Origin: an uncultured virus (IMG/VR IMGVR_UViG_3300028805_000054)
Lineage: Duplodnaviria > Heunggongvirae > Uroviricota > Caudoviricetes
Reading direction: 5' to 3' (one strand)
DNA: 64,000 nucleotides
Virus record (IMG/VR): IMGVR_UViG_3300028805_000054
The notes under the pieces are model-generated. The model saw nothing but the letters and a program-made list of their open reading frames with translations, was not told where the DNA came from and did not search any database. Each line of letters begins with the position of its first letter. Within the stretch, counting starts at the first letter, position 1. The position numbers and the translations under genes are program-made. This document shows, piece by piece, positions 1 through 55,898 of the stretch.

Positions 1-2
1 TA

Positions 3-464: not shown

Positions 465-465
465 A

Positions 466-771: not shown

Positions 772-3610
772 AATATTGGCAATAGCGGACATACATCTAC
801 ATGATTATCCGCAGCGTAATAGTTTTCAATTTCAACGATTATATCAAGGATCAAGAATTGTAGCTAAAAATATTATTGAAGTAGGGAAGAGGGAAGGAGC
901 GAATTACATAGCGATTTGTGGTGATCTGATAGAGAAATCGATAATCAGACCGTACGTTATGGCAGAAGCATACAATTTCCTTCATACCATCATGTCAGAG
1001 TTCAAAGAAGGTTGGATTATCTGGGGAAATCATGATATAGATGCTAAGTCGTCAGATCAAGTAATGACAGATTCTTGCTTAGCTTTATTCCTTCCTCCCA
1101 ATCTTAAGTATATGCATCAACAGCAGATAGAACTGGAGGGAAAGATTTTGGGTTTTAACAATTGGCAGCCCGACATAGATCTGAGTTGGGTAAAAGGTGA
1201 GTTAGATATGTTATTTACTCACGCTAGGATATGTTATCAGGAAGGTTCAGACTTATATCAATCACAGTACTTAGATGAATCAAAGTTTAAGATTGCATTC
1301 TGTGGTGATATACATAGACCAGGACAACTAGGAAAATATGTCAGCATTGGTATCCCTCAAAGATGTAAGATGTCGGATGGAGAAAAATCGACCGGCGTAT
1401 TGATAGATCTTGAAACGGGAGATTGGAAATGGGTAGACCTGAATCCTAAAGATAATCTAATGAAATTCCAGTATGTGACAGTTCCGGAGCAAGAAGGATG
1501 GAATGAAGCTTTTAAGACCTGGAATATCTATAAGCCAAGTACCGATAACATGATAGATCCCTCTGCAAACATAAAAGTATCGGGGTGGGAGAAAATTGAG
1601 TCTTTGGTAGATGATGCTATAAAAAAGGCGTCTCTAGTAGAAGTTCATCAGCAAGTTTTAGCCTCCATCCCAAACTTAGATGCAGGGGAAGTAGATTTCA
1701 ATTTCACCCCAGTCCGTTTCTATTGTAAGAATTGGAGAAGTATAGACGAAGTTGAAATGTTTTTTGAAGAGGGAGATAAAATCCTGATTGTTGGTGAAAA
1801 TGGATCTGGTAAGTCTAGTCTCCTATCTGCCATTAAATATGCGTTCTGTGATGTTCGTTCTACTTCTGGTCTTTCCTCACTAAAGCCATTCATTCAATTT
1901 GGTACTAAGGATTGTGTAACAGAAGTAGAGTTTATGTATCAGGGAAATCGTTGTAAGCTGAGACGTGGAACAAAAGAATATGGTCTCTGGATAAACGAGG
2001 AGCCTATGAAATATAATAGTAAGGCAGATTTTGAAGCTGATGCACGCCGTAGATTCCCATTCATTGAGTATATGGAGGTAATGATTCACGACCAAGACCA
2101 TAACCAATTTATAGGAAGTCTTACCGGCGAGAGATTAGCAGAAATAATCAGTAAAGCTTTTAAACTAGACCGCATTGATACCTATAATGATGCTGCTTCT
2201 CTTATGCTCACTCAATTGGTAAAAGGAGCTGCAGAGTGGGAATCAAAGATAGGGGAGTCAAAGAAGGTATTAGGATTTATAAACAGCAAACTAGAATCAA
2301 TTGTCTTACCTACCAAAACAAAAGAAGAGTTGACGAAGGAAAAGGATGTTATGGTTGAGCTGCAGAGGAAAAATCGAGAGTGGAATATCTTTGTGTCTAC
2401 TTCTTCACGTCTTCAAGCTGGTATAGAAAGTAGGGAAGGTGAGAAGACTGAATTGCTGGAGAAGAAACGAGCGCAAAGAGAACCGTCGATAATAGATGCG
2501 GAGATAGAGAACCTAAGAAAAGAGATTGGAGTAAAGCAGGAACGTCTTATTGAATTGGGCGGACTTAAGAATGCAATCAGGGTAAAGGAATCAGAATTAA
2601 CCCGCATAATCTCCGACGGTAAAAATCTGCGCTCGGAATTTACAGCAATAGATCCCACCAAGATTTCCTATTGTCCTACTTGTCGCCAGCAGATTATCCC
2701 CTCTCCAGAAACTATCGAAGCCTTAAAAACAAAGAAGGAAGAGATTGGAAAGAAGCTGGAGGAAAAGTTGGCTGAATATGGAAAGGTTAATCAGGAGTTA
2801 GAGCAGATGAAGAACGATTTTGGAAACTCAGACTCCGAAATTCAGGCTATCAACGGAGAGATAGGGGGATTGAATGGAGAGATTACAAAGAGGATGTCAG
2901 AAATACGAGTCGGGAAGGAAATTGAGGAGAGACTAGGGAGAGTAGAACGTGAGCTGACCGAATGGAAAACTAAATTAGCGAATCTTGGTGCTCCCGAAAA
3001 AGTTGAACTTCCTGATGATTTTATGGAGAAGATGTCAACAATAGAGTCTGGCTTATCATCATGGAACCTTTGGGAATCTGGGGTGAAAGACAAAGAGGAA
3101 CAAGAGAAGAAAGTTAAGGCCTATGAGAAAGAAGTGGAAGGTAATCGAGAACAACAGGATAAACTCAAGTCTTATATAAAACTGACAGGACCAACGGGAG
3201 TTATTTATGAGGAGGTAATGAAAAAACTAGTCTCCCAATTCAATGACAATACCGTATCCTATGAAGTTAATGTCAGAGAGTTTAGAAAGAAAGATCACCT
3301 CACTCTCGTACCACAATTCTTTAATAATGGAAATTGGGTATCTTATGAGGCTTGTAGTGGTGGTCAGAAAACGGTACTCGACATTCACTTCTTGAGCAAA
3401 ATTATAAATCGTGTTGGAATATTAATCTTGGATGAATTTTTGAAACACCTTGATCCTTCTAACCACGATCTCTGTCTCGATATGATTCAGAGTATGAGTA
3501 TTGGTTGTACCTTTGTCTCATCTCATATGGAATCTATCGCAGCATTCAATAATAAAACGTGTAGCTTGTCTCTTAATCAGTCAGGCCTCACGCAGATGAA
3601 ATTTAGTTAA
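764..3610 (+). CDS. Fused Mre11/SbcD nuclease - Rad50/SbcC ABC-ATPase
   Basis: N-terminal metallophosphoesterase motifs (ADIH, CGD, GNHD, THA, GDIH); Walker A GENGSGKS; coiled coil with zinc hook CPTC; signature CSGGQ; Walker B LILDE; H-loop SSH. Confidence 0.92.
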   Translation: MSKILAIADIHLHDYPQRNSFQFQRLYQGSRIVAKNIIEVGKREGANYIAICGDLIEKSIIRPYVMAEAYNFLHTIMSEFKEGWIIWGNHDIDAKSSDQVMTDSCLALFLPPNLKYMHQQQIELEGKILGFNNWQPDIDLSWVKGELDMLFTHARICYQEGSDLYQSQYLDESKFKIAFCGDIHRPGQLGKYVSIGIPQRCKMSDGEKSTGVLIDLETGDWKWVDLNPKDNLMKFQYVTVPEQEGWNEAFKTWNIYKPSTDNMIDPSANIKVSGWEKIESLVDDAIKKASLVEVHQQVLASIPNLDAGEVDFNFTPVRFYCKNWRSIDEVEMFFEEGDKILIVGENGSGKSSLLSAIKYAFCDVRSTSGLSSLKPFIQFGTKDCVTEVEFMYQGNRCKLRRGTKEYGLWINEEPMKYNSKADFEADARRRFPFIEYMEVMIHDQDHNQFIGSLTGERLAEIISKAFKLDRIDTYNDAASLMLTQLVKGAAEWESKIGESKKVLGFINSKLESIVLPTKTKEELTKEKDVMVELQRKNREWNIFVSTSSRLQAGIESREGEKTELLEKKRAQREPSIIDAEIENLRKEIGVKQERLIELGGLKNAIRVKESELTRIISDGKNLRSEFTAIDPTKISYCPTCRQQIIPSPETIEALKTKKEEIGKKLEEKLAEYGKVNQELEQMKNDFGNSDSEIQAINGEIGGLNGEITKRMSEIRVGKEIEERLGRVERELTEWKTKLANLGAPEKVELPDDFMEKMSTIESGLSSWNLWESGVKDKEEQEKKVKAYEKEVEGNREQQDKLKSYIKLTGPTGVIYEEVMKKLVSQFNDNTVSYEVNVREFRKKDHLTLVPQFFNNGNWVSYEACSGGQKTVLDIHFLSKIINRVGILILDEFLKHLDPSNHDLCLDMIQSMSIGCTFVSSHMESIAAFNNKTCSLSLNQSGLTQMKFS
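2452..2649. repeat. Ladder nested inverted-repeat element 1 (inside Rad50 coiled-coil CDS)
   Basis: attgctg 2452/cagcaat 2643; cgagcgca 2468/tgcgctcg 2628; accgtcg 2482/cgacggt 2614; atgcgg 2496/ccgcat 2602. Confidence 0.85.
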
Positions 3611-8445: not shown

Positions 8446-8476
8446 CATATATAAGGATTTCAAAACCTTATTAATA
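8446..8476. promoter_or_regulatory. Back-to-back promoter motifs (8446-8456 minus; 8466-8476 plus)
   Basis: catatataagg and ccttattaata between divergent genes. Confidence 0.7.
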
Positions 8477-8733
8477 TGAAGGTGTATTGGGTTTATAAAG
8501 ATGGAAGGTGGACATCAGTATTTATTACAACCTCAGATCTACCTAAAAATGGGCTTGGAGATATAGAAGGTGAGATCTATAATATGAGGAGGAAATATTC
8601 TCATAAAAGGTTGAGATTATGTTGGAGAAATTTGAGGGAGAAGTCAGCAAATGAATTTAAGGGGATCGATATGTGGCCGAAAGTGTTAGAGGAGAAATAT
8701 GAGGGGCCGTTTGTAGTTGATTGGAAATATTAG
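8476..8733 (+). CDS. hypothetical protein
   Basis: ATG directly follows the promoter motif. Confidence 0.6.
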   Translation: MKVYWVYKDGRWTSVFITTSDLPKNGLGDIEGEIYNMRRKYSHKRLRLCWRNLREKSANEFKGIDMWPKVLEEKYEGPFVVDWKY

Positions 8734-8824
8734 TCCAATCTTTTATTTTTGGTTTCTCTCAATTCCTTATAAGTAAAAGATAAACTTAAATCGTTAATAT
8801 AAAATTAACTAAAAAGATAAAACA

Positions 8825-10018
8825 ATGATTATTAGAAGTAAATGTGAAAACGATGTTTACAAGTGGAACATGAGTTATCTTATGATGATGAAATTCCCTA
8901 ACATGAAAGTTCGGTTCAAGTTTAAAAATAGAAGACCGGGCGAAAAGTTTGATCAAAAGTTTATTGAGGACATGAAGTTAGAACTCGCAAAACTTAGAAT
9001 GTTGAAATTAAGTGACGCAGAGAAAGCTTTCATGAAAAAGAATTTCTGGTGGATTCCGGGATGGTACTTCGACTGGTATCAACATGCGGATATTTTTAGA
9101 CCAGAAGCAGTTAAAATGTGGCTGGATGAAAACTCAGAATTCCAATGTGAGGTGGAAGATCTTGGATATATTGTGACCTTCTGGGAAACAAACATACTTC
9201 CTATCTTTGCTGAACTTAGAAATAGGACCTACGGATATACTTATGATAAGATGAATGAATCCGAAGCCCTCGAGTTGGTAAGAGAGCAGATAAATCTCTC
9301 TAACGAGCATCAACTTAAGTTTTCTGAGTTTGGATTGAGAAGAAGATTCAGTGCAACCTGGCAAGATAAGGTGGATGATATTATTAAAGCTGAAGCTAAA
9401 TATTGTGTAGGTAATAGTAATGTTTATGAAGCTTATCGTTTAGGGCAGAAAATTAGCGGTACACAAGCTCATGAAATTTATATGGCCTATAATGCTATTT
9501 ATGGTTATCGTGAGGGTAATTATAAGTGCGTAAAGGATTGGATGGAAGTATTCAACGGACATGCTGGTATTCTTTTAGGAGATACTATTGGACTTGATTC
9601 TTTCCTGAAATGTCTTACTACTTTGTATGCTAAAGCTAGTTCTGGTTATCGTCATGATTCTGGACCTTGGGAAGAAGCTACAACAAAGTATATTAAACGA
9701 CTCAAGGAACTTTATGTCAATCCTCTTCACAAATCAATCATATATTCAAACAGCATTAATATGTGGGACCTTGATGATATTGGAAATAATGTGAGAGGTA
9801 GAGTCGGAGATTTTGCTGGTGGTATGGGTGGAGCATTTACAAATAATATTCCAAGCCTTAAGCTAGCGAATCCGAATATTGTAATGAAATCTGACATGGT
9901 TCAGCTTGATGCAAATTCCTTCCCAGCTAATACAGTGAAAGTACCTGATGAGCCGGGTAAAGAAATGGGGGATCCGAAAGAGGTTGAATACTGTAAATAT
10001 GTAACAGAGCGATTATGA
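8825..10018 (+). CDS. pncB: Nicotinate phosphoribosyltransferase
   Basis: DVYKWNM, EFGLRRRFS, GNSNV, GTQAHE (phospho-His motif), GYRHDSG. Confidence 0.88.
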   Translation: MIIRSKCENDVYKWNMSYLMMMKFPNMKVRFKFKNRRPGEKFDQKFIEDMKLELAKLRMLKLSDAEKAFMKKNFWWIPGWYFDWYQHADIFRPEAVKMWLDENSEFQCEVEDLGYIVTFWETNILPIFAELRNRTYGYTYDKMNESEALELVREQINLSNEHQLKFSEFGLRRRFSATWQDKVDDIIKAEAKYCVGNSNVYEAYRLGQKISGTQAHEIYMAYNAIYGYREGNYKCVKDWMEVFNGHAGILLGDTIGLDSFLKCLTTLYAKASSGYRHDSGPWEEATTKYIKRLKELYVNPLHKSIIYSNSINMWDLDDIGNNVRGRVGDFAGGMGGAFTNNIPSLKLANPNIVMKSDMVQLDANSFPANTVKVPDEPGKEMGDPKEVEYCKYVTERL

Positions 10019-11226: not shown

Positions 11227-11486
11227 GTAACAAAACAGACCTAGAGCTAATCCCGGAAGTTGCAAAGCTAAGGGAACTAATGAGAGGAACGAGATTAAGG
11301 GAAGGGAAGTTAGTGGTGAAAGATTTGCCAGCTTACGTGAATTCTTTGAAGAGCGTTATCCCAATCTACCAAGAACTGAAGGACCGAGAACATTATAAGA
11401 ATACAGCTAGATATGTAGGATTTAAATTAGAAATGATTACAGAAGTTTTAAAGAATAATTATGGAATCGAACTGGAGGAAAAATAA
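11223..11486 (+). CDS. hypothetical protein
   Basis: Operon ORF. Confidence 0.6.
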   Translation: MSNKTDLELIPEVAKLRELMRGTRLREGKLVVKDLPAYVNSLKSVIPIYQELKDREHYKNTARYVGFKLEMITEVLKNNYGIELEEK

Positions 11487-12066
11487 ACCATACCTTGCCT
11501 TTAACCCGTCAGAAACAAAAAAGACTGGAGATGGATATGGTTGGTTAGTGTCGAAAGAAGATTGTAGAACTTTGTATGACGGTAGATATTGTGCTGTCTC
11601 TGGATTCTTCTATGCGGTAGTTAATGGTCAATATTCTGTGTTAGCCGAAAAACGTGGGGAAGGAACGCCAGATTTTCAAGGATGTTGGTGTTGTCCCTGT
11701 GGTTTCTTGGAAGGTGATGAAAATGCTAAAGAAGGAATCAAACGAGAAACTTACGAAGAATGTGGAGTAGAAATAGGGTATGATAAGATTAAATTTGTAG
11801 AAGCTGAAACTGAACCTGCCCTCTGTAATAATGGAAATGTAACTCTAAGACACACCGGATTTTTAGGGAAGCAACCGAAGATAGAGAGACCTGACCTATT
11901 AGAAACGGAAGAACGAGGAGGAGAGAAGAAAGAAGTTGCGGAAGTAGCCTGGATTCCTATCTCCCATGTCAATCGTTATGAGTGGGCTTTCGGACATGGA
12001 GAGGTGATTAAAGAATATGCTGAGAATCGTTTTTGGAGGTGGATCTTAGAATTACTGTACAGATGA
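11461..12066 (+). CDS. Nudix hydrolase (ADP-ribose pyrophosphatase-like)
   Basis: Nudix box GFLEGDENAKEGIKRETYEECGV; C-terminal WAFGH. Confidence 0.85.
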   Translation: MESNWRKNKPYLAFNPSETKKTGDGYGWLVSKEDCRTLYDGRYCAVSGFFYAVVNGQYSVLAEKRGEGTPDFQGCWCCPCGFLEGDENAKEGIKRETYEECGVEIGYDKIKFVEAETEPALCNNGNVTLRHTGFLGKQPKIERPDLLETEERGGEKKEVAEVAWIPISHVNRYEWAFGHGEVIKEYAENRFWRWILELLYR

Positions 12067-20429: not shown

Positions 20430-20440
20430 CCTTATATATG
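20430..20440 (+). promoter_or_regulatory. Promoter-like motif CCTTATATATG
   Basis: Consensus copy 20 nt upstream of ATG 20460. Confidence 0.7.
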
Positions 20441-24552: not shown

Positions 24553-24599
24553 ATTTTTTTACTTCTACTCATAATTATTTTCATCATATATAAGGTCTT

Positions 24600-24947: not shown

Positions 24948-25517
24948 ATGGAAGATTATTATAAAACTAAAGTAGGAATATTCTTAGGAAGTTTTGATCC
25001 TTTTCACACTGGACATAAGGAAGCAGTTTTGGAAGCCCTAAGACGTGGAATGGATTCGGTTTGGGTTGTGCCGTCTGTTTGGAATCCTTGGAAAGATAAG
25101 CAGCCAGTTCCCATCGATGAAAGATTCTGGATTGCTCACTATGAATTGGAGAAAATAGAAAACGCCAGAGTCTTAGCCGTTGTAACCGATCCTGACCCAA
25201 CCGACGGAAAATGGTATTCGGTAGATCAACTAAGGAAAATAATCAGGGGGTATGGATCTAAGAACTATGAATTTTGGATTATCGGCGGAAAAGATGTAAC
25301 CGAGGAAATAGAGAACTGGAAAGAAGGGGATTGGATCTTGGGAAACTTTAAAACCTTGGAAATAGAATTCAAACATCAAGGAGAAGAGGTTGAAAAAATT
25401 AGTAGTACCCAAATTAGAGAGTGGATTGGGAAACGAGAATGGGATAAACTGAAAGGATTAGTATGCCCAAAATCGATTAAGTACATTCGAAATCATGAAC
25501 TCTACGTTACTGGCTAA
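24948..25517 (+). CDS. nadD: Nicotinate/nicotinamide mononucleotide adenylyltransferase
   Basis: GSFDPFHTGH (HxGH), NPWK, IIGG, ISSTQIR. Confidence 0.88.
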   Translation: MEDYYKTKVGIFLGSFDPFHTGHKEAVLEALRRGMDSVWVVPSVWNPWKDKQPVPIDERFWIAHYELEKIENARVLAVVTDPDPTDGKWYSVDQLRKIIRGYGSKNYEFWIIGGKDVTEEIENWKEGDWILGNFKTLEIEFKHQGEEVEKISSTQIREWIGKREWDKLKGLVCPKSIKYIRNHELYVTG

Positions 25518-25905: not shown

Positions 25906-25949
25906 GGGATTAGAGAATAAAACCTCTATCCCTCTTTATTTTTCCTGCC

Positions 25950-26200
25950 GTTGAGAAGCCAAAACCAAAGCTGCAACCCTAAAAGATTATGAAAGCTATA
26001 ACAAATGTGCCTATGCTTTTTACGTTACACAAAGCATTTCTCTGAGGTTAAGCCTTCCCGTGGCCACTTCGCTGTTACTCTCATTATTACTCTCTGCGCT
26101 CATAATAATTCGTTTCACTACGCTACGAACCCTTAACCTCTCAATTTCAATTACCCTTTCACTTCGTTTCAGGGATTAAAATTGAAAGATTCCCTATTTT
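25950..26200. other. Conserved structured non-coding element, copy 1 (upstream of helicase-like gene)
   Basis: Homologous to 53194-53481; stems atgcttt/aaagcat, gaggttaag/cttaacctc, tttcaatt/aattgaaa with variable interiors. Confidence 0.8.
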
Positions 26201-26285
26201 TCTAATTTCTAATTTTTAGAGTTATATAAGCATTAACGAAATTCTTACGTAAAATATAGAAAACTCTCCTATCAAGGCCTCAACT

Positions 26286-26296
26286 CCTAATATATG
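26286..26296 (+). promoter_or_regulatory. Promoter-like motif variant CCTAATATATG
   Basis: Same relative position as motif 53568-53578 in the paralogous locus. Confidence 0.55.
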
Positions 26297-26446
26297 TAAA
26301 AGGATCTCTACTGATGTTAGAGAAAAGAGAGCTAAAGTTTAAAATACGCTTTAGCGGATTTTGTGAAAGACTGTGATGTAATCCAGGCTTTCATTTGTTT
26401 CAAAACATTAATCGTTATAATAGAATTATAACTAAAATTAACAATT

Positions 26447-28597
26447 ATGGAAAAGAAAGATATTATTGTACCTAAAGGAATAAGGTACATTGGAAATTGG
26501 AAAGAGTTTGACCTTGATAAATATAACAGCCCTTATATAATAAATAAAACACTTACGGGTTGTGGATTTACAGAGCATTGCTTGACTAATGATAAAGATA
26601 TTGTACTAATATCTCCTAGACGGTTTCTTCTTGAAAATAAAGAAGAGCAACATTCTGGAGACGTCTACTATTTCAGAAATGATAATGAAGTTTCCGTTGA
26701 TTTTGAATTAGAAATTGATAAAGATGACGTTAAGTCTATCAAAGAAAAGGCAGAGGAAACTGAGGACTCTAAGAATAAAACTTTAGAGAATCTTGATCGT
26801 ATAAAGAGAAATCTGAGGAGTGCTTACTTAACTTTTAAAAAGAATAATCCAAGTAAGCCATTCAAGATACTTGTAACATATGACTCTTTCAAACATGTTA
26901 AGGATGTTCTTAAAAATATCAAGAAAGAAGGCAGTGTCTCATACTTTGATACGGACAAGGACAGTGTTGTAAAGGCTGAAACTGAATTTGATAATTTCTT
27001 TTGTGTGGTTGATGAATTTCAGTCTATTTTCATTGATGCACGTTTCAAATCAGAAGCTGAAATAACACTTCTTAAAGAATTGGATGGTTGTAAGAGATTA
27101 TGCTATGTAAGTGCTACTCCTATGCTCGACAAGTATCTAGAGATGCTACCAGAGTTTAAAGATCTTCCTTATTATGAGCTGGATTGGGCAACAGAAGACC
27201 CAGGACGAATAAAGAAACCAAAAATTGAAATTAAGTTTACAAGATCACTTAATGAAGAGGCCAAAGCAGTAATTCATAGTTATCAGAATAAAAGATATGA
27301 GACTCGATTAAACTCAGAGACCGGGGATTTAGTAGATTCTAAAGAGGCAGTTCTATTCTTCAACTCTGTGGCTGGTATTTGTCAGGTAATCAGGACAAAT
27401 AGATTACACCTAGAGGAATGTAATATTATATGTGCTGACACTTCAAAAAATCAAGAATCTATTAGGAAAGCTTTAAACTCTGTTCTTAAGAAGGATGCTG
27501 AAGAGAAGGGGGAAACTGTAAAATATTTTACAAAGAATGATAAAGTAGTAGGTAAAATTCCAGTCAAAGGAGAGAAACATAAATTATTCACATTCTGTAC
27601 TCGAACTGTATATCTTGGTGCAGATTTCTATTCAACTAATGCTAGAACCTTTGTATTCTCAGATGCTAATATAGACTGTTTGAGTGTAGATATTAGTATG
27701 GACTTAGAGCAGATATTAGGTAGACAAAGGCTTATAGAGAACCCTTGGAAAGATTATGCTAAAGTGTTTGTTCGGACTGTTTCTAAGAAAAATATAACTA
27801 CTGAAGGGGAATTTAAAAAGAAATTAAACGCTAAGGTTAAAAATACTGAGCGATTATTAAATTCCCATAAAGAAGTAAGTTTCGAAAATAAAAAAGCTTT
27901 GGCTGGAGTATATCTAGAAAGGGCTAAAGTACAACACTATCGAAACGATTATATTTCAGTAAGAGTTATAAAAGACTGGGAAACTAATGAAGTCAAAGAG
28001 CTTATCCCAGAATTCAACAATCTTATGATGATTTCTGATATGCGAGCTTTCGAGGTTCAACAGATAGATTATAAAGATAGATTCACTGTATTCTCTACTG
28101 TTAATCAGAATGGTATCGAGGGAGCAACAATTAAGTCATGCGAATTGGTAGAAGAGTTTAATAAAATTGGTGATACTACAAAAAGACTAAAATTTCTAGT
28201 TGACATTAGTGAAGATGATCTTTTAAACAAAGATGACATAGTAGCATTTTTAGAATTAATCCCATCTAAATACAAAGATTACTATTATGATGTTGGCCCT
28301 GAAGTTATAAAGAAATGTAGATGTTTCGAGTCAGAAGTTAAGAAAGAGTGGAGACGACAAAAATCTAATGGAAAAATAGAGGATCAAGTTGTTTCTAGAA
28401 CATATGATCTCTTTAAAGTTGGAAAGAAGTACTCTAATAAATATATTAAGGATAAACTTAAAGACTTATATCAAGAACTGGAGTACAATCAAAAAGCCAA
28501 AGCTACTGATCTTGAACTCTTATACATTGTAAAAGCCATTAAACTGCAAGAAGATGGTAAGTGGGTTAATGGTCTAGAGATATTAGGTAAGAGATAA
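26447..28597 (+). CDS. SF2 helicase-like protein, paralog A (716 aa)
   Basis: Motif I-like TLTGCGFT, Ia LISPRR, II VVDEFQ, III SATP, V TRTVYLGADF, VI EQILGRQR; C-terminal KAKATDL domain. Confidence 0.75.
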   Translation: MEKKDIIVPKGIRYIGNWKEFDLDKYNSPYIINKTLTGCGFTEHCLTNDKDIVLISPRRFLLENKEEQHSGDVYYFRNDNEVSVDFELEIDKDDVKSIKEKAEETEDSKNKTLENLDRIKRNLRSAYLTFKKNNPSKPFKILVTYDSFKHVKDVLKNIKKEGSVSYFDTDKDSVVKAETEFDNFFCVVDEFQSIFIDARFKSEAEITLLKELDGCKRLCYVSATPMLDKYLEMLPEFKDLPYYELDWATEDPGRIKKPKIEIKFTRSLNEEAKAVIHSYQNKRYETRLNSETGDLVDSKEAVLFFNSVAGICQVIRTNRLHLEECNIICADTSKNQESIRKALNSVLKKDAEEKGETVKYFTKNDKVVGKIPVKGEKHKLFTFCTRTVYLGADFYSTNARTFVFSDANIDCLSVDISMDLEQILGRQRLIENPWKDYAKVFVRTVSKKNITTEGEFKKKLNAKVKNTERLLNSHKEVSFENKKALAGVYLERAKVQHYRNDYISVRVIKDWETNEVKELIPEFNNLMMISDMRAFEVQQIDYKDRFTVFSTVNQNGIEGATIKSCELVEEFNKIGDTTKRLKFLVDISEDDLLNKDDIVAFLELIPSKYKDYYYDVGPEVIKKCRCFESEVKKEWRRQKSNGKIEDQVVSRTYDLFKVGKKYSNKYIKDKLKDLYQELEYNQKAKATDLELLYIVKAIKLQEDGKWVNGLEILGKR

Positions 28598-28608: not shown

Positions 28609-29700
28609 ATGGAAGATAATAAATTGATAGATAAAATATTGGTTTATTATCTTCTTTTAATTTTAGTTTTAATTATGAAAAAGAAAAACACTTATTTATA
28701 CGTTATTCTTCTACCCCAAATGAATGAAGAATTAGAGTTAGGGTATATGATTAAGTTTGGTTATACTAAAGACTTCAAAGATAGAATGAGAGGTGGTTAT
28801 AATCAATATCATAGATATGTGAAAGTATTACATATATATGAAGGAGAATTTACTATGATGGATGAATCTAAGCTTAAGCAGTATTTTAGGGATAATAATT
28901 TAGTATTATGCAAAGATGAATACTTAAAGAATTGTAATGAAGTTCTCGAATTTTTTAATACTTATGATACCTCAGAGAAACTTAAAGAGAAGATTGACAC
29001 TATTCCTTATAAACCAATGCCTAGAAAATATTATAAAGTTGATCTTAATTATATTGAATATATCATCTTCAAAATATATTCAAGCCTAACCGAACTTTTA
29101 GATATTCAGAGAAAGAGGGATGAGATATTTAAAGAGTTGAGAGAATTTAGTGAAAAAGAGCAGCTTATTCATATCAAGACAAAATATGGTATTACAGAAG
29201 AGGAGTTGGAAGGGTATGTATTGAAAGTAACTCCAAAAAACTCTACAGAAAAAGCTTGTGAAATGGCTATTGAATTTAATAATATTGGTGATACTTCAAA
29301 AAAACTTAGGATGTTAGTTGATCTGAGAGAAGTAGATGGAGCAACTGAGAAGGATATCAATTCTTTCTTAGAATTAATTCCACCTAAGTTTAAAGAGTAC
29401 TATACTATCATGGGTCCTGATTTTATCAAACAGTTCTCTTGCAATGAAGCTGAAATTAAAAAAGAATGGATTAAGCAGAGATCCAATAAAACGATAGATA
29501 TTGCTTCTGAGATTTATAAAATATTTGAAGTTGGAGAAAGATATACTAAGGCTGATATCAAAGCCACTTTAAAGAAATTATATTCTGAGGTTGGATACCA
29601 GAAGACAGCAAAAGCATCAGATCTTCAGGAATATTTTGAAGTAAAAGGAATCCTAACCTCTGATAAAAAGAATGGATTTGAATTACTAAAAAAGAAATAG
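28609..29700 (+). CDS. GIY-YIG/T5orf172-like nuclease fused to the C-terminal domain of the helicase-like paralogs (start may be 28675)
   Basis: YLYVI...IKFGYTKDFKDRM; last ~150 aa align by eye with the end of 26447..28597. Confidence 0.65.
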   Translation: MEDNKLIDKILVYYLLLILVLIMKKKNTYLYVILLPQMNEELELGYMIKFGYTKDFKDRMRGGYNQYHRYVKVLHIYEGEFTMMDESKLKQYFRDNNLVLCKDEYLKNCNEVLEFFNTYDTSEKLKEKIDTIPYKPMPRKYYKVDLNYIEYIIFKIYSSLTELLDIQRKRDEIFKELREFSEKEQLIHIKTKYGITEEELEGYVLKVTPKNSTEKACEMAIEFNNIGDTSKKLRMLVDLREVDGATEKDINSFLELIPPKFKEYYTIMGPDFIKQFSCNEAEIKKEWIKQRSNKTIDIASEIYKIFEVGERYTKADIKATLKKLYSEVGYQKTAKASDLQEYFEVKGILTSDKKNGFELLKKK

Positions 29701-33946: not shown

Positions 33947-34516
33947 TTATCCTGGGAGTTGCATTTGCTGAAGATCTTGAAATTTTTGGATATAAGAACC
34001 AGCGCAAAGTATGACATCCTTAACCGAAGTTTTACCGGTAAGAAGAGGAACACCATACTTCTCACAATAAAGATGAATCTGAGAATACATCTGATTACCT
34101 TCCCCGCATCTAACCACCAATTTTCCTGACGTGACTAGAGACCCGAATTCTAAGATTGGGGTGGGAGATACAGATTTATTCATAATGTTTAAGAATACAA
34201 AATCAGCCATATCCATCATCGCCATTCTCCACTGCATGGTCGCAACAAATTCGGGGTTTTCCAACGTCGGGGCTAATCTATTGGTGGGAGGAACATGCGG
34301 GTTGAAAATAATCCAGTTAGCTCCCTTAATCATCAGCAAACCTTTTAGAGGATCAGACAATTTTTCCAATCCCTCTACAAATTTAGTCTGCCAATCATTC
34401 TCGGAGGAACCAAAATCCATAGTACCACCGAGATAAACTTTAATAGCGTCATTTGTAACCACCGGCAGCTGATCGCCAGGGTACAAGACGGTAATTTTCT
34501 CACTTACTTGCAACAT
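33947..34516 (-). CDS. Nucleoside 2-deoxyribosyltransferase-like protein
   Basis: VYLGGTMD...DWQ...IFNP...SPTPILEFG...KLVVRC. Confidence 0.75.
   Translation of the reverse strand: MLQVSEKITVLYPGDQLPVVTNDAIKVYLGGTMDFGSSENDWQTKFVEGLEKLSDPLKGLLMIKGANWIIFNPHVPPTNRLAPTLENPEFVATMQWRMAMMDMADFVFLNIMNKSVSPTPILEFGSLVTSGKLVVRCGEGNQMYSQIHLYCEKYGVPLLTGKTSVKDVILCAGSYIQKFQDLQQMQLPG
34103..34301. repeat. Ladder element 10 (inside CDS)
   Basis: cccgcat/atgcggg; ccaccaa/ttggtgg; gacgt/acgtc; cccgaatt/aattcggg. Confidence 0.8.
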
Positions 34517-35799
34517 AATACTTCCTCAAGGATACCCACTGCTTTAGCTGTGGGAGGAATTGAGGTTGATTCCTTCTTTTTGTTATACATAATTAATCTA
34601 CTAGATATCCTACAAAGTCTGAGATTCTTGTAAGAGGTACCTAATTTATTTCCATCAAATGTGCGAATATCAAAATAACCACAGCTTCTTCTACCACCTA
34701 TATAGTATTGTCCTCCTTTATATCTAACAATATCATTTAGCCTATAACCACAAACTTTATATGAAGCTTGATTCTTTTTAAGTTTACCTCCTTTTAAAAT
34801 TTTAAACTTATGAATTTGACGATTATGTCTCCTAACCTGTTTCATAATATATCTATAATCTAACAGCTTAGCTCCAAAATTCTCACTAATTACAAAAGCA
34901 TCATTGTCATGATCCTTAGAGATACTATTCTGAATACGATTATATTTTGTAATATATCCCCAAGTATAGAAAACATTACTATATCTTATTCCAGATTCCC
35001 TAAGAAGATAATTCTTCATAATATTCATTACTGCTGCATCACGAAGAGATCTGGATCTCTTAAAAGACAACTTAATCTTACCTTCATGATAATCCTTGTG
35101 ACAAGTTTTACACAAAGTAATCAGGTTTCCTGGAGAGTTACCCCCTATCTTTCTTGATACAATATGATGTACATTTAAGATCTTATCACCAGACCTACCT
35201 TTACAATGTTGACAGGTGTGATTATCCCGGGACAAAATATACTCTCTAATATTCCAGAAATCTTTTTGCGGCCCCTCCTGATATTGTACTCCACTAATAC
35301 TAGGGTTATTTATCTTCTGAGGATCAAAAGAACCAACTTCAATAATAAGTTTTGTGATTGGAAGAATAGAGTAGACTAGATCTATCAGTTTAAAGTGAAA
35401 TTGTATCTTATTCTGTATAGAGGGTGCTATCCAACCAGGTTTCTTAGTTTTTATTCTATTCAGAAATCTAGCCTCTCTGTGACGAAGTCTTCCTCTTCTA
35501 GTTCTTCTAACTTCTCTCCTAGTTGAAAGGAGATTTACTATATCTGTTCTTAATTCACCTATCCCACAAAATAATTCTTCTTTTGAAGTAGTAGCAGATA
35601 GGCCAACATGTTTTGACCCACTGTCTACGCCAAGAGTAATATTTTGTGTATATCTTTTCTTTTCTGTGGTCAACTGGATTGTGAATGGTTCTTTTCTTAC
35701 CACCACTGCTTGACCTGTTTTAAGTAGCCACCTGACATGTCCTAATCTTTTAGTAGGCATTAAAGGCGTGCCATCATAGTTCAATACATATACAATCAT
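34504..35799 (-). CDS. iscB: RNA-guided endonuclease IscB
   Basis: PLMP domain; RuvC-I LGVDSG; Arg-rich RRTRR bridge helix; RuvC-II IIEV; HNH CQHC..HHIV..N..TLCKTCH; RuvC-III HDNDA. Confidence 0.95.
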   Translation of the reverse strand: MIVYVLNYDGTPLMPTKRLGHVRWLLKTGQAVVVRKEPFTIQLTTEKKRYTQNITLGVDSGSKHVGLSATTSKEELFCGIGELRTDIVNLLSTRREVRRTRRGRLRHREARFLNRIKTKKPGWIAPSIQNKIQFHFKLIDLVYSILPITKLIIEVGSFDPQKINNPSISGVQYQEGPQKDFWNIREYILSRDNHTCQHCKGRSGDKILNVHHIVSRKIGGNSPGNLITLCKTCHKDYHEGKIKLSFKRSRSLRDAAVMNIMKNYLLRESGIRYSNVFYTWGYITKYNRIQNSISKDHDNDAFVISENFGAKLLDYRYIMKQVRRHNRQIHKFKILKGGKLKKNQASYKVCGYRLNDIVRYKGGQYYIGGRRSCGYFDIRTFDGNKLGTSYKNLRLCRISSRLIMYNKKKESTSIPPTAKAVGILEEVLCCK

Positions 35800-36140
35800 A
35801 ATAATTAAATTTAATTAATAACTTCATTCCCCTAAGGGAAGTTAGGCTCCCATCGTCAATGTTATTATGTGGTTTAATTGTTATCAACACTTTCCCTACC
35901 CCATAGGAATGTTTAATCAATAACCGTAGAGCTACAGACTTGGAAGAATTTACATCCGTAGGTACCTATTGTATAGAAGGTTGAATACAAAACAACTCCT
36001 CTACATTCACACATAACGTAGTTCATCTCTTTCTATCATCTCGTGATACATAGAGACTTCACTTAGACTAATCAGCATAGGGCATTTACATTCCCTCGAC
36101 CAGATATTTTTATAATATCGTTCAGTCGTGGGTTACTGAC
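34504..36140 (-). mobile_element. Non-autonomous IS200/IS605-family IscB (OMEGA) element
   Basis: Begins GTCAGTAACCCACGACTGAA on the minus strand; ends with subterminal hairpin CCCACAGCTAAAGCAGTGGG; no tnpA. Confidence 0.85.
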
Positions 36141-40054: not shown

Positions 40055-40351
40055 CTACATATATAAGGATGTCGGGGCCTCTTGAAAGATATGTACCTCT
40101 GTGATCTTATGAAAACCCGAGACAGGAGTAGGGAGACGTGTAGTGAGGGAATTCCAACCAGGCCATCCAGAATATAGAAGGTCAGGTCTAGGGTCTCCGT
40201 CTTTTATGTGATTTGGGGTAGGGAAATAACCAGAATTCTTTTCTATCTCCTTTACCAAACCCCACATCTCGAAGGCTTCACGTTCTCCAATCTCAGTCAA
40301 CCAGCAACTTTCCTCGCCTTCTCTCGCATCTACTTTTATAAGAATGTACAT
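40055..40351 (-). CDS. hypothetical protein
   Basis: Operon ORF. Confidence 0.65.
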   Translation of the reverse strand: MYILIKVDAREGEESCWLTEIGEREAFEMWGLVKEIEKNSGYFPTPNHIKDGDPRPDLLYSGWPGWNSLTTRLPTPVSGFHKITEVHIFQEAPTSLYM

Positions 40352-41989: not shown

Positions 41990-42062
41990 AGAGAAATCTG
42001 GACACACGACTTTAATTCTTCCTTCGGGTTGGGTTTAGGTCGTGTTTTTATTATCACGCGAG
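41957..42062. repeat. Small ladder element 12 abutting promoter 42065-42075
   Basis: ctcgcgtg/cacgcgag enclosing acacgac/gtcgtgt (inner hairpin may double as a terminator). Confidence 0.6.
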
Positions 42063-42101
42063 ATCCTTAATAGTGTGGAAATCAAAATCGGGAAATAAAA
42101 A

Positions 42102-42884
42102 TTGAATCAGAATATGGAATACAAGTTTACAGATTTCATGAAGAGCCTAACGGGAAAATTAGACTCAATACACGGAAATAGAGGAAATGTGCCGGAAGAT
42201 AGTTATTACCTTTACGAAATGGATCTTAAAGCAGATGCCACAGAGTTAGAGAAAGCAGAACATATAGCAAAAGAAAAACTCTGGCTGGTTGATAAGGGAG
42301 AATCTTTTGTGTATGATTTTATGAGAGGGCACAATGGAGAAGACTTAGGAAACGGAGACGAGAGATATAATTTTGAACAAGACGTTAGATTTTATTGTTT
42401 GAGAGGACTTGGAATTTATATGAATGTTCGTCGTATTGTTCTCCCTCCAAAGAAAACCGTTGAAGTTGGGAAAACAAAAAGGTTATATGTACTAAGAGAC
42501 GGAAGAGAATTTTGGAAAACACCATCTCTTCTATTCCCATCCTCTCCTAAAGATTTGTTGAAGTGGTTGAGAAAGAAAAAGAAAATTAGTTTAGGGAAAG
42601 ATACGGAAATTTGGAATCACAACGAAACTCTTGATACGATGGTCCATACTTATACCCCCATGAAGAATATTAAGAGTGAAGAAGATTTGTCAGATTATAA
42701 TGTATGGATTGAAACCGAATATAGGGACTGGATTGAGAACGTTCATAATAAATTTTGGACTAGAGTGTGTGTAATGGATAAATCTAAGGCGGTAAAAATT
42801 AATCCAAAAGAGCTAAAGATTACACAAGAAGATATCACCCAATTTGTAATTGACTATAATAATCGCTTTAAGATTGAGAGATGA
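42102..42884 (+). CDS. hypothetical protein
   Basis: 260-aa ORF. Confidence 0.75.
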   Translation: MNQNMEYKFTDFMKSLTGKLDSIHGNRGNVPEDSYYLYEMDLKADATELEKAEHIAKEKLWLVDKGESFVYDFMRGHNGEDLGNGDERYNFEQDVRFYCLRGLGIYMNVRRIVLPPKKTVEVGKTKRLYVLRDGREFWKTPSLLFPSSPKDLLKWLRKKKKISLGKDTEIWNHNETLDTMVHTYTPMKNIKSEEDLSDYNVWIETEYRDWIENVHNKFWTRVCVMDKSKAVKINPKELKITQEDITQFVIDYNNRFKIER

Positions 42885-42980
42885 CTGGCCTTTAATTGGG
42901 CTGGTCTTCTTTTTGGTTAAATTGATGAAACGCACTCCTCAAACCCTGACAACCTTATATAAGTAATAAACTTAAAAAAT

Positions 42981-50787: not shown

Positions 50788-50875
50788 TAATAAAAGCCTG
50801 CCTCGTAATAAAGGTGGGCTTTTTCAACATTAATCGTTTATAATAGAATTATAACTAAAATTAACAAACAAACTT

Positions 50876-51370
50876 ATGGATATAGAAGAAAAAATATTTA
50901 AGAAAGGAATTAAATTCTTTTCCCTGTGGTTTTTGTGTATGGCTCTATTTGTATGGGAAACGCCGAAACCTAGGGAATGGAAAACAGAAGAAACTGAGTA
51001 TTCTTGTGTTCCGGATGAATATGATGAGGAAGATTGGAATAAGGTGACAGTAACCGTATACAATCCTGTGGTAGAACAATGTGATTCTACTCCTTACACA
51101 ACAGCCGACAATTCAGAGATAAACATGGCTAAACTAAAGCAAGGAAAGCTAAAGTGGGTTGCCGTTAGTAGAGATCTCCTGAAAAACGGAAAGGTTAAGT
51201 ATGGAGGAAAAGTCAAGATCAATTGTAAAGAAGATCCTACCCTAAGTGGAATTTATACAGTTCATGACACAATGCACCCGAGATGGACAAAGCATGTGGA
51301 TATCTTAACTCATCAAGATAATAGAACAACCGGAATGTATAAGGACGTAGAAGTAGAGTACCTGGATTGA
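50876..51370 (+). CDS. 3D-domain (double-psi beta-barrel) lytic-transglycosylase-like protein
   Basis: N-terminal TM; TVYNP..QCD..P..TAD...VAVSRDL...VHDTM...VDIL. Confidence 0.8.
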   Translation: MDIEEKIFKKGIKFFSLWFLCMALFVWETPKPREWKTEETEYSCVPDEYDEEDWNKVTVTVYNPVVEQCDSTPYTTADNSEINMAKLKQGKLKWVAVSRDLLKNGKVKYGGKVKINCKEDPTLSGIYTVHDTMHPRWTKHVDILTHQDNRTTGMYKDVEVEYLD

Positions 51371-53193: not shown

Positions 53194-53481
53194 GTTGAGA
53201 GGCCGAAATAAAAGCTGTAACCCTAAAAGATTATGAAAGCTGAAACAAAAGCTATAGCTTAGTTTTATCATAAAGATAAAAATGTCTATGCTTTTTGCGT
53301 TACACAAAGCATTTTTCTGAGGTTAAGCCTCCCCGTAGCCACTACGCTATTCCGTAATTCATCGTGAACTCAGAATTACTACATTAACGCTTCGGACCCT
53401 TAACCTCTCAATTTCAATTACCCTACGCTCGTTCGTAAAGCTCACTAAGCTTCGGGATTAAAATTGAAAGATTCCCTATTT
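53194..53481. other. Conserved structured non-coding element, copy 2
   Basis: Homologous to 25950-26200 with the same outer stems and divergent inner stems. Confidence 0.8.
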
Positions 53482-53567
53482 CTTATTTTCTTATTTTAGA
53501 CCTCTATATTAGCTAATCGACATTCTCAAGTTTAAATTAAGAAAACTCCCCTCATAAAGGCTGAAAG

Positions 53568-53578
53568 CCTTATGAGTG
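53568..53578 (+). promoter_or_regulatory. Promoter-like motif CCTTATGAGTG
   Basis: Recurrent motif. Confidence 0.6.
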
Positions 53579-53747
53579 TAGATAATATCTGGTCCTCAAT
53601 TGTGATGACCTAGATCTCTACTCTTCAAAGAGAGAAGAAGATAAAGAGAACTAATACGTTTAAAATACGCTTTAGCGGATTTTGTGAGAGACTGTGTTCG
53701 AAGAACCAGGCTTTCATTTGTTTCAACATATAAAAATTATATTAACA

Positions 53748-55898
53748 ATGGAAAAACATAAAATTATAGTACCGAAAGGAATTAGGTATATAGGTGATTG
53801 GAAGGATTTTGATCTTGAGAATTATGAAGGTCCTTATATTATCAATAAAACTCTCACAGGATGTGGATTTACTGAACATTGTCTTACTAATGATAAAGAT
53901 ATAGTTCTGATATCCCCAAGGCGTTTCCTCTTAGAGAATAAGGAGGAACAACACCCAGGAGATGTCTACTATTTCAGAAATGATAATGAAGTATCCGTTG
54001 ATTTTGAGTTAGATATTGAGAAAGATGACGTTAAGGCTATTCAGGAGAAAGCCGAGGAAACAGAAGACTCAAAGAATAAGACCCTGGAAAATCTTGATCG
54101 GATAAAGAGGAATCTGGGGAATACTTATTTGACATTTAAACATGATAATCCAGATAAACCTTTTAAGATTCTTGTTACTTACGACTCTTTCAAGCATGTC
54201 AAGAATGTGCTTAAAGATCTTAAGAAGGAAGGTAGTGTCTCATACTTTGATACAGACAAGGACAGTATTGTAGAGGCTGAAACTGAATTTGATAATTTCT
54301 TCTGTGTGGTAGACGAATTTCAATCTATCTTCATTGATGCTAGATTCAAATCAGAGGCAGAAATAACGCTTCTCAAGGAGTTGGATGGATGTAAGAGATT
54401 ATGTTTTGTTTCAGCTACTCCAATGCTTGATAAATATCTGGAGATGCTTAAAGAATTTAAAGACTTACCATATTATGAATTAGACTGGAGTGCTGAGGAT
54501 CCAGGTCGAGTAGTAAAGCCAAAGATTGAGATTAAATTTACAAAGAGTCTTAATGAGGAGGCAAGAATGGTAGTTAATAGTTATAAGAATGGGAAGTATG
54601 ATGTGCGAATTGATCCTGACACTAAAGAAATTATAGAGTCTAGAGAAGCAGTCTTATTCTTTAACTCAGTGGCTGGTATTTGTCAAGTGATTAGAACTAA
54701 TAAACTTCACCTAGAGGATTGTAATATTATATGTGCAGATACTTCTAAGAATAAGGAGGCAGTTAAGAAAGCCTTAAATTCAGTTCTTAAGAAGGAGGCA
54801 GAAGAAAAAGGATTAACTCCAAAATATTTCACTAAGAATGATAAGGTGATTGGAAAAATTCCTGTGAAGGGAGAACCGCATAAGATGTTCACTTTCTGTA
54901 CTCGAACTGTATATCTAGGAGCTGATTTCTATTCAACAAACGCTAGATCTTTTATATTCTCAGATGCTAATATAGATTGTCTGAGCGTAGATATTAGTAT
55001 GGACTTAGAACAAATCCTAGGTAGACAGAGACTTTTAATCAACCCCTGGAAAGATTATGCTAAAGTATTTATTCGTACTCTTTCAAAGAAAAATACTAAA
55101 ACTGAAGGGGAATTTAAAAAGAGGCTAAACACTAAGATCAAGAAGACAGAAAATCTTTTAGCTTCATATACAGAAGTTGATCCGAGTAGAAGAAAAGATT
55201 TAGCAGAAAACTATCTTACTGTTGCTAAGATGTGTCACTATAGAAATGATTATGTATCAGTAAGAGTTGAAAAAGATTGGGAGACTAAAAAAATTATTTC
55301 AATGACTCCAGAATTCAATGAGCTGATGATGATTTCTGACATGAGAGCCTTTGAAGTCCAGCAGGTAGATTACAAAGATCGATTTACAGTATTCTCAGCA
55401 GTTAATCAAAGCGGAATAGAAGGTGCTACCATCAAGTCATGTGAGCTAGTAGAAGAATTCAATCATTACGGAGATACTACATCAAGACTTAAGATGCTAG
55501 TTCAGATTAGTGAAGATAAGAGTCTGACTAGTAGTGACATTGGTGCCTTCTTAGAAATGATACCACCAAAATATAAAGATTATTACCTAATAGTTGGACC
55601 AGATATTATTAGGGCTTGCGGTTGTTTTGAATGTGAAGTTAAGAAAAGATGGAGAAAAGAAGTTGAGGGTGATGACTATAACGAACAAGTTATTTCCAGG
55701 ATGGGAGATATGTTCAGGATTGGTCATAAGTATTCAAAATCTGGCATAAAAGAATCACTGAAAAAATTATATCAGGAGTTAGATTACAAGAAGACAGCTA
55801 AAGCCACTGATCTAGAAGTTATATATGTTACGAAAGCCATCAAACTACAGGAAGATGGTAAATGGGTAAATGGCTTTGAGATATTAGGTAAACGATAA
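53748..55898 (+). CDS. SF2 helicase-like protein, paralog B (716 aa from MEKHKII)
   Basis: Colinear with, and the same length as, 26447..28597; same motifs. Confidence 0.78.
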   Translation: MEKHKIIVPKGIRYIGDWKDFDLENYEGPYIINKTLTGCGFTEHCLTNDKDIVLISPRRFLLENKEEQHPGDVYYFRNDNEVSVDFELDIEKDDVKAIQEKAEETEDSKNKTLENLDRIKRNLGNTYLTFKHDNPDKPFKILVTYDSFKHVKNVLKDLKKEGSVSYFDTDKDSIVEAETEFDNFFCVVDEFQSIFIDARFKSEAEITLLKELDGCKRLCFVSATPMLDKYLEMLKEFKDLPYYELDWSAEDPGRVVKPKIEIKFTKSLNEEARMVVNSYKNGKYDVRIDPDTKEIIESREAVLFFNSVAGICQVIRTNKLHLEDCNIICADTSKNKEAVKKALNSVLKKEAEEKGLTPKYFTKNDKVIGKIPVKGEPHKMFTFCTRTVYLGADFYSTNARSFIFSDANIDCLSVDISMDLEQILGRQRLLINPWKDYAKVFIRTLSKKNTKTEGEFKKRLNTKIKKTENLLASYTEVDPSRRKDLAENYLTVAKMCHYRNDYVSVRVEKDWETKKIISMTPEFNELMMISDMRAFEVQQVDYKDRFTVFSAVNQSGIEGATIKSCELVEEFNHYGDTTSRLKMLVQISEDKSLTSSDIGAFLEMIPPKYKDYYLIVGPDIIRACGCFECEVKKRWRKEVEGDDYNEQVISRMGDMFRIGHKYSKSGIKESLKKLYQELDYKKTAKATDLEVIYVTKAIKLQEDGKWVNGFEILGKR

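Follow-up and report, generated by a model that had tools for sequence, protein, structure and literature searches.

A repeated phage cassette that joins a covarying non-coding element to a helicase-like gene, and its possible role in DNA synthesis

Two copies of a cassette and the protein family they encode

A 64,000-nt stretch of DNA from an uncultured virus of the class Caudoviricetes (IMG/VR record IMGVR_UViG_3300028805_000054), hereafter called the window, contains two copies of a cassette in which a non-coding block is followed by a gene for an ATPase resembling helicases of superfamily 2 (SF2). Copies A (25950-28597) and B (53194-55898) are homologous from a GTTGAGA motif through the stop codon, and both lie on the plus strand, as do all cassette features given below. 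Their open reading frames (ORFs), ORF A (26447-28597, protein P0001) and ORF B (53748-55898), each comprise 2151 nt and 716 amino acids (aa) counted from an ATG; the program-made ORF list extends ORF B to a GTG at 53694, and the ATG at 53748 was used here. The two starts are 27301 nt apart, and the proteins share 78% identity over 716 aa in a gap-free alignment. The upstream blocks (25950-26446 and 53194-53747) align from GTTGAGA to ATG with several indels at a mean column identity of 77% (aligned stretch including flanks), and their conserved sub-blocks reach 88-97%, the upper value being that of 26337-26375 against 53658-53696. Sequences 5' of GTTGAGA are unrelated, each copy having the terminator of its own upstream gene there, and the genes flanking the two copies are not the same. 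These alignments bear out what a sequence-only reading of the window had described, namely two homologous units with 2151-nt ORFs about 27 kb apart in unrelated contexts. Its remark that no transposase, terminal repeat or target duplication is visible was also confirmed, since no transposase, terminal inverted repeat or target duplication was found at the window copies or at two recent insertion junctions in relatives. No ORF, small ORFs included, is conserved between the two blocks. An exact 30-nt repeat (26415-26444 and 50838-50867) lies directly before the ATGs of two genes, ORF A and ORF 50876-51370. Compared with every other member of the family, copy A has it as an insertion, suggesting that an initiation region was copied recently.

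Searches with P0001 found no match in Pfam, NCBIfam, PHROGs, PADLOC, PDB sequences or PDB profiles, and the ESM Atlas returned only viral hypothetical clusters, with nothing for the C-terminal domain. P0001 is a member of a large family that has no Pfam model, as more than 4885 relatives were retrieved by a word-index search and 2106 cluster representatives (E≤1e-3) by an exhaustive profile search. Single-protein and exact 20-nt pattern scans of IMG/VR gave no matches, and the relatives from that database came from a profile scan. The pair of cassettes is thus not a private duplication of the window: it belongs to a large family with many cassettes elsewhere.

Among 88 diverse members, the residues K34, T144/D146/S147, D189/E190, D197, S222/A223, W247, T385/G391/D393, D415 and Q422/I423/G425/R426/R428 are invariant, and T224 of motif III is nearly so. 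SF2 motifs II (D-E-x-x), III (S-A-T) and VI (Q-x-x-G-R-x-x-R) are present in these proteins; the place of motif I (Walker A, G-x-G-K-T) is taken by a P-loop-like site, T-G-C-G-F-T-E, with F at the lysine position. K34, invariant in 88 of 88, stands four residues before the first glycine of this site and, judging from its position, may be a displaced Walker lysine. A scan of 88 proteins (P0001, the copy B product and 86 relatives) for helicase models gave sub-threshold matches to DEAD in four (best 25.5 bits, cut-off 26) and to ResIII in one, as well as a PADLOC Cas3 match in one (5e-5). The SF2 fold that the sequence-only reading had proposed is therefore a prediction from motifs and from Pfam matches that stay below threshold.

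Moreover, all four of the ~940-aa relatives scanned carry a BT4734-like primase domain belonging to the AEP (archaeo-eukaryotic primase) type after the whole helicase-like body (E 1e-13 to 1e-17). PriCT_1 is also present in one of them, and both of those scanned with PADLOC matched PrimPol at 1e-19. BT4734-like proteins are listed as one family within that primase superfamily (PMC5862659).

Predicted fold of the upstream block and its divergence together with the gene

The block had been called structured from the window alone. Single-sequence folding does not support this (copy A, z -0.36; copy B, z -2.07) and was rejected as evidence, while covariation across relatives does. RNAalifold applied to the full 696-column MAFFT alignment lost the long-range stems through register shifts, and the modules were therefore analyzed separately. 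In the alignments, the block is arranged as a 5' boundary motif, a hairpin, a core domain (S3), a stem (S4), a T-rich spacer, an AAAACTC...CCTTAnnnnTG segment, the complement of the 5' motif, a two-hairpin leader and a T-rich run.

The S3 core (26041-26143 in copy A, 53316-53410 in copy B) has a stem, GAGGTTAAG/CTTAACCTC, around a conserved GCCTTCCCnnnGCCAC junction, which is kept across relatives as GCCYYCCCnnnGCCAC. In an alignment of 31 sequences fitted to a covariance model, 278 of 279 cells are paired (99.6%), and double changes are seen in eight of nine pairs (52 cells). This level was reached in 0 of 500 shuffles, and slid controls paired in 25-54%. RNAalifold predicted nine pairs here, seven of them compensatory. 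In 26 of 27 sequences, the 8-nt arm before the junction is matched 80-124 nt downstream by its exact reverse complement, and eight variants of this arm occur among the 27, with very different ones in distant clades. The covariance model (R1) scores S3 of copy A at 81.2 bits (E 1e-18) and the copy B block at 82.1 bits. When 1.03 Mb was searched, R1 gave 38 matches at E≤1 and 30 at E<1e-6; all 30 have the same orientation as the gene and lie 381-638 nt upstream of it, three are absent from the seed, and only copies A and B match within the window. As a separate observation, summed contig depth in DNA run X1 is ~80 over the S3 core (25972-26155) and 14-16 in the flanks, consistent with many related core copies in the same metagenome.

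Further modules surround the core. Conservation begins sharply at the 5' boundary motif, (A/C)GTTGAGAA (25949-25958), in 17 of 26 aligned relatives with many differing upstream contexts. This motif is complementary to TCTCTACT at 26305-26312 and is proposed to be the 5' arm of a long-range closing helix. Within the window's clade there is some covariation of the two arms (GAGAAC/GTTCTC versus GAGAGT/ACTCTC), and this helix is only suggestive, since shuffled arms do equally well by count. Next comes a conserved hairpin, ATGCTTT...AAAGCAT (26013-26037), with variable inserts and the compensatory forms ATGTTAT/ATAACAT and ATACTTT/AAAGTAT. Downstream of S3, the stem S4, TCAATTT...AAATTGA (26141-26185), was predicted by RNAalifold with nine pairs and is kept in 12 of 12 sequences, one pair being A-U in eight and G-U in four. 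The T-rich spacer (26196-26219) occupies the same position in all aligned relatives and could serve as an unwinding element or a linker. It is followed by the AAAACTC ... CCTAATATATG segment (26260-26296), in which AAAACTC is invariant in 12 of 12 sequences and the last 11 nt match, with one mismatch, the promoter-like motif of this phage's intergenic regions. The leader, with a hairpin H1, a long hairpin H2 and a T-rich run (26337-26405; ~53658-53733 in copy B), yields 20 pairs by RNAalifold, six of them compensatory, with G-U pairs present; leader hairpin and T-run are found in most, not all, family members. The IMG/VR clade has a block of other sequence built on the same plan, with stem-closed TTCG loops and a closing helix of 12-17 pairs whose arms are ~450-500 nt apart; a sequence related to the AAAACTC segment, AAACTC..TAATTAATGA, adjoins that helix.

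When both blocks were scanned at E≤10 against Rfam 15, whose families include HEARO, GOLLD, ROOL, introns, riboswitches and ribozymes, only chance-level snoRNA and miRNA matches were obtained, and the sole gathering-level Rfam match in the window is HEARO at 35841-36140. Among direct repeats of at least 30 nt, no repeat family lies inside either block (shorter iterons were not looked for); the families that touch the blocks connect copy A to a place outside it, nearly always the copy B counterpart.

The promoter that the sequence-only reading had placed between block and leader stays putative, as sigma-70 scans found nothing common to copies A and B, and the phage-type motif CCTAATATATG at 26286 occurs in copy A only. 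Elsewhere in the window, the motif CCTTATATATG was found at 18 sites with no more than one mismatch, e.g. 8446-8456(-), 20430-20440(+), 24585-24595(-), 40058-40068(-) and 62849-62859(-), and at two or fewer mismatches there are 50 matches versus 29 expected. Most of these sites precede a start codon by 0-25 nt in the orientation of the gene, a GC-rich patch often coming before them, and the motif is probably a phage promoter or initiation signal.

The block is not confined to the window's copies. Of 83 IMG/VR loci examined, two have no ORF call and five lack a neighbour within the locus; in 71 of the 76 whose upstream neighbour could be measured, the gene is preceded by 350 nt or more without an ORF of 80 aa or longer, many of these loci being orthologs. 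In the metagenome set, blastn placed the copy A block directly upstream of the gene in 25 loci, or 28 when the copy B block was added as a query, and the proteins of these 28 loci are 45-77% identical to that of ORF A. The copy B block is 85% identical by blastn to the block of a syntenic relative (L084). Paralogs in the same genome share 412-671 nt of upstream homology at 71-75% identity. The sequence-only reading had supposed that protein and upstream structure act as one unit, an idea that would fail if homologs generally lacked the block; instead, the block was found upstream of homologs generally, and it diverges with the gene.

This joint divergence is seen in a phage-like 376,162-bp contig (G002:C18) with nine copies of the cassette. 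Its upstream gaps are at least 440 nt at seven of the nine copies, model R1 has no match in it, and its blocks are of a different sequence type, related among themselves. They fall into two sequence types that match two protein subfamilies, and upstream and protein similarity are correlated across eight copies (the split copy described below was excluded) with a Spearman coefficient of 0.73 over 28 non-independent pairs. Block and gene thus diverge together. Two cultured phages have distant single-copy homologs with 0.9-1.35 kb free of coding sequences upstream, at divergent junctions; these gaps are AT-rich with scattered short repeats, have no Rfam match and cannot be aligned to the block. 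The arrangement of an initiator-like gene beside a conserved non-coding site holds throughout the family.

Copy number, spacing and genomic setting

We counted copies and looked for empty sites, as the sequence-only reading had proposed. Seven full-length copies are present in a 292-kb genome that is 74% complete (G001), and nine in G002:C18, which assembles as a circle by virtue of a 141-bp end overlap. Copies are evenly spaced in both genomes. The midpoint gaps in G002:C18 are 44, 36, 38, 37, 44, 42, 28 and 47 kb, plus 60 kb across the ends; the probability of a minimum gap at least as large is 2.6e-4, and that of a coefficient of variation at least as low is 1e-5. Among the 469 ORFs of this contig, the cassette is the only dispersed multi-copy family, the others having at most three members, mostly in tandem. 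Segmental duplication was considered as the cause of the spacing and rejected, because no other dispersed families exist in this contig. Of the genes within 4-8 kb of the modules, 90-94% point in the same direction as the module. One copy of G002:C18 (346017-347992) is split into two frames at ~346784.

The paralogs are old, being 39-78% identical, and several positions are shared between distant clades. L084 is syntenic with the copy B region over 49.8-58.2 kb of the window, its protein being 89% identical, and the position upstream of an SbcCD-like gene is common to clades that are ~40% identical. A copy is present 3.6-5 kb upstream of the homolog of window positions 1-2300 in several IMG/VR genomes and in L113, a relative that is 97% identical to the window's first kilobase; a third copy probably lies just before the window, at a position common to distant clades. 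In many IMG/VR records (L046-L048, L051, L053, L022, L033, L035, L044), one copy starts at a constant 4.7-5.5 kb from a contig end, which suggests a fixed genome terminus or an assembly break near the module.

Presence and absence also differ between close relatives, at two sites within the window. At the first (8730-8779), L097 and L093 carry a 2.75-kb cassette, positions 231-2985 of L097 replacing the window stretch, and the flanks are 84-94% identical in nucleotide sequence. At the second (41990-42978), L094 and L109 have a 2.9-kb cassette where the window has an unrelated insert of ~950 nt, with flanks of 74-86% identity. This insert holds an ORF of 260 aa (42102-42884) with a TTG start, its own terminator and no family match, and the intergenic slot appears to exchange cassettes. 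The inserted unit begins ~10 nt ahead of the 5' motif and extends to the terminator downstream of the stop codon, and no repeats or target duplication were found at the junctions in L097, L093, L094 and L109. The cassettes inserted in these relatives are only ~55% identical to the window copies. In addition, a ~23.5-kb segment between the modules (29700-53190) is inverted in L091 relative to the window, with breakpoints at module borders; the L091 module has the homolog of window 31.9 to 29.9 kb, inverted, on its left and that of 56.2-58.6 kb on its right.

Directly after copy A lies a 363-aa ORF (28609-29700, plus strand) with a weak MUG113/T5orf172-like N-terminus (MUG113: E 0.007, 17.4 bits, below the cut-off of 22.3; T5orf172: E 0.27, 12.2 bits, below the cut-off of 20). 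Its last 157 aa are 48% identical to residues 560-716 of P0001, so that the two proteins have a C-terminal domain in common. The ORF after copy B encodes a phosphoesterase unrelated to it. ORFs having only the C-terminal domain follow the full-length gene at 21 of 80 IMG/VR loci, at two of the seven copies in G001 and at three of the nine in G002:C18, and five short (~340-aa) relatives found with this domain carry a precomputed PF13455 annotation. Two more ORFs of G002:C18 with this domain (173457-173933 and 285162-286022) lie away from any full-length copy.

As for its other contents, the window encodes an SbcCD-like fusion, NAD-salvage genes, Hsp20 and IscB with a HEARO RNA, most ORFs having no Pfam match, and it looks like part of a very large phage. 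The NAD-salvage-type genes (8825-10018, 11461-12066 and 24948-25517) correspond to a nicotinate phosphoribosyltransferase, a NUDIX hydrolase and a cytidylyltransferase-like (NMNAT-like) ORF. The IscB-type ORF (RRXRR and HNH, 431 aa) and the HEARO/omega RNA directly upstream of it (92.3 bits, above gathering) together occupy 34504-36140 on the minus strand and are an RNA-guided nuclease pair inside a huge-phage-like genome.

Possible roles of the cassette and comparison with known systems

The cassette is a functionally tied pair of non-coding structure and gene, ancient and regularly spaced. Homology between the copies, covariation, co-divergence, copy number with spacing, presence and absence in relatives and fusion of relatives to primase were all observed directly; action of the element as RNA, its binding by the protein and a link to replication are what we infer from them. 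Tentatively, and at somewhat less than an even chance, we favour a reading in which a structured sense-strand RNA and its cognate SF2-like protein act in cis to start DNA synthesis at the locus. The element (0.4-0.6 kb), most likely a 5' portion of the transcript of the gene itself, would fold as a sense-polarity single strand into a domain closed by the long-range helix and followed by the two-hairpin leader ending in a U-rich run. The ATPase would recognize or remodel its own element in cis. Cassettes would be old paralogs, duplicated and inherited as units and kept at regular intervals along huge-phage chromosomes, and the most likely job of the loci would be the start of DNA synthesis, with the transcript forming an R-loop or primer, or a primosome being loaded, and a dedicated initiator gene beside each site.

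This reading draws on four points: the fusions to primase, the regular spacing, the linkage in cis between site and protein, and the precedent of T4, whose transcript-primed origins are acted on by a helicase. A start of DNA synthesis at these loci is proposed because relatives of the protein are fused to primase, and the maintenance of cassettes at regular intervals suggests a position-dependent job of the locus. The element probably acts as RNA, on account of its constant polarity, its position against the start codon, the G-U pairs in leader and S4, and the bias of TTCG loops closed by 4-bp stems (10 on the sense versus 2 on the antisense strand in 91 dereplicated blocks). Of the two explanations offered by the sequence-only reading, a repeated origin with its initiator gains indirect support from the AEP primase fusions, the even spacing and the non-coding gaps at the cultured-phage homologs, and loses in that the element resembles a single strand that folds, probably as RNA, rather than an iteron origin of double-stranded DNA, and that no skew step was seen. 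It is doubtful, in our estimate, whether huge phages replicate from many evenly spaced sites, each with a structured origin transcript or folded strand and a cis-acting SF2-type initiator.

A number of observations weigh against the RNA-based start of DNA synthesis. P0001 has no canonical Walker-A lysine, and all 88 proteins scanned stay below the cut-offs of the Pfam helicase models. No conserved promoter was found 5' of the GTTGAGA boundary. Contigs from an RNA library give low-depth cover of 26118-26304 and of some of ORF A, and parts of the block have none; such contigs may hold DNA and cannot give strand, ends or level, so no conclusion on expression follows from them. The closing helix of the window's clade is not significant by count, shuffled arms reaching nine pairs in 59.5% of trials. 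GNRA-type loops number only 49 versus 34 on the two strands, and two loop types favour the other strand. S3 lacks any G-U pair in its 279 cells, and a variable position of the IMG/VR closing helix has seven G-U versus four A-C; both observations also fit single-stranded DNA. The latter count had been tried as a wobble-versus-mismatch test of the strand and gave no decision. No step in GC or AT skew occurs at the nine modules, around which residual GC skew is flat once the gene-strand effect is removed; this is a weak test in phages. Finally, no single copy is indispensable, since close relatives differ by the gain or loss of cassettes, and the even spacing could also come from the insertion immunity of a mobile element.

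Among the alternatives, a purely autoregulatory leader survives best and is rather unlikely. The block would then be a long structured 5' untranslated region (UTR) by which the protein monitors its activity and adjusts how much of it is made, either through attenuation at the final hairpin and U-run or via the stability of the mRNA, with no cis role as DNA and with the copies forming an expanded family of trans-acting genes. Several features speak for such a leader: the element directly precedes the ORF on its strand in all cases, co-diverges with the protein and resembles a riboswitch in its plan, with a closed domain first and then a hairpin and T-rich run that lie 30-70 nt ahead of the ATG. 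The alignments of several members show that the closing helix has a competitor, since its 3' arm could instead form a local pairing with the TAGAGA next to it, and E. coli deaD, with its 838-nt 5' UTR, provides a precedent (PMC7430678). An autoregulatory leader would, however, leave unexplained why an enzyme acting in trans should require seven to nine diverged copies, and why these are evenly spaced and form the only dispersed family; no promoter was found upstream of the block, and the junction motif is kept where the protein is only ~40% identical, which suggests more than a generic substrate.

The other explanation offered by the sequence-only reading, a self-propagating unit, gained a little from the cassettes that close relatives carry at the two sites empty in the window. 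It would be a selfish cassette of block and gene, sometimes with a GIY-YIG-like helper, that spreads by a homing-like or other mechanism between co-infecting phages or to new intergenic sites, its spacing reflecting immunity to nearby insertion. This is improbable. The two presence/absence sites fall within 64 kb and have precise cassette ends, the unit sits between a terminator and a promoter as morons or free-standing homing genes do, the neighbour ORF that shares the C-terminal domain resembles MUG113/T5orf172, the inversion relative to L091 breaks at module borders, and gaps of 28-60 kb range roughly from d to 2d for d of ~28 kb. On the other hand, searches of the main ORF detected no domain of transposase, recombinase or nuclease type, the junctions have neither terminal repeats nor target duplication, the divergence of the paralogs means that there was no recent burst, and several positions are syntenic across distant clades; the low identity of the inserted copies to those of the window points to old paralogs gained and lost by recombination, not to fresh transposition.

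A single-stranded DNA structure, i.e. a large primosome-assembly or helicase-loading site that is exposed on unwinding and recognized by the adjacent SF2-like protein, is equally improbable: the purely Watson-Crick S3, the coexistence of A-C and G-U at one closing-helix position, the primase-fused relatives, the T-rich spacer inside the block, the failure to find an upstream promoter and the SF2 helicase PriA, which recognizes hairpin sites in single-stranded phage DNA, are in its favour, but stem-closed TTCG tetraloops are enriched on the sense strand, G-U pairs occur in leader and S4, and the element shares the gene's polarity throughout and lies against its start codon.

Whichever role applies, the cassette is an undescribed unit that combines a folded element outside Rfam with a protein family outside Pfam. 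The replication and organization of phage genomes of 300-400 kb are largely unknown, and nine cassettes of ~2.7 kb make up ~6% of a 376-kb genome, spaced as regularly as origins would be. If block and gene are an origin-initiator pair, they would provide a direct handle on replication in uncultured megaphages and would reveal a chromosome with multiple origins and one initiator per origin in a bacterial virus, built on undescribed RNA and protein families. If they are an RNA-protein machine or a mobile cassette of a new kind, they would add large structured RNAs of a new class, partnered by an ATPase of their own. A full-text literature search, with subscription journals and supplements outside its scope, yielded no account of the family, nor any of helicase cassettes spaced evenly in phages. 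To our knowledge, such a system-level pattern is known nowhere else.

Known systems resemble the cassette in part. Like IscB with its HEARO/omega RNA, it has a structured non-coding RNA candidate directly 5' of a protein gene and co-inherited with it; the two have no sequence or model in common, the cassette protein is ATPase-like and not a nuclease, and no guide segment or transposon ends are evident. Features of transposable elements (insertion sequences (IS), IS200/IS605-like and Helitron-like elements, miniature inverted-repeat transposable elements) do not apply, as no transposase or Rep protein, terminal repeats, target duplication or near-identical copies were found. Free-standing homing endonuclease genes and morons are likewise intergenic, have their own terminators and are present or absent between close relatives, and the GIY-YIG-like neighbour recalls them. 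The main ORF of the cassette, in contrast, has no detectable nuclease, and its copies are ancient, evenly spaced and equipped with a large structured element.

Sulfolobus chromosomes also have several cis sites, each beside a diverged initiator paralog. Their initiators are Orc1/Cdc6 or WhiP AAA+ proteins that bind double-stranded boxes, whereas the cassette protein is SF2-like and its site would be a folded single strand. In E. coli deaD, a helicase gene likewise stands behind a very long leader, which is needed there for negative feedback (PMC7430678). However, deaD is a single cellular gene for a canonical DEAD-box protein, and a conserved closed fold is not mentioned in the abstract of that study; the cassette protein remains below all Pfam cut-offs, its leader covaries, and many dispersed copies exist. 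The T4 origins oriF and oriG (PMC3016281) use a transcript that forms a primer R-loop, on which the UvsW helicase acts. In both systems, a transcript of the locus would serve as a nucleic acid in cis, an AT-rich stretch lies downstream, an SF2 helicase is involved, and there are several sites per genome, which in T4 are origins. The T4 origins are ~100 bp long and have neither a large conserved fold nor a dedicated initiator gene beside each, UvsW being a single gene whose product removes R-loops. Each cassette, by comparison, has a covarying structure of 0.4-0.6 kb and its own paralogous gene, and by analogy with T4 it may be an origin.

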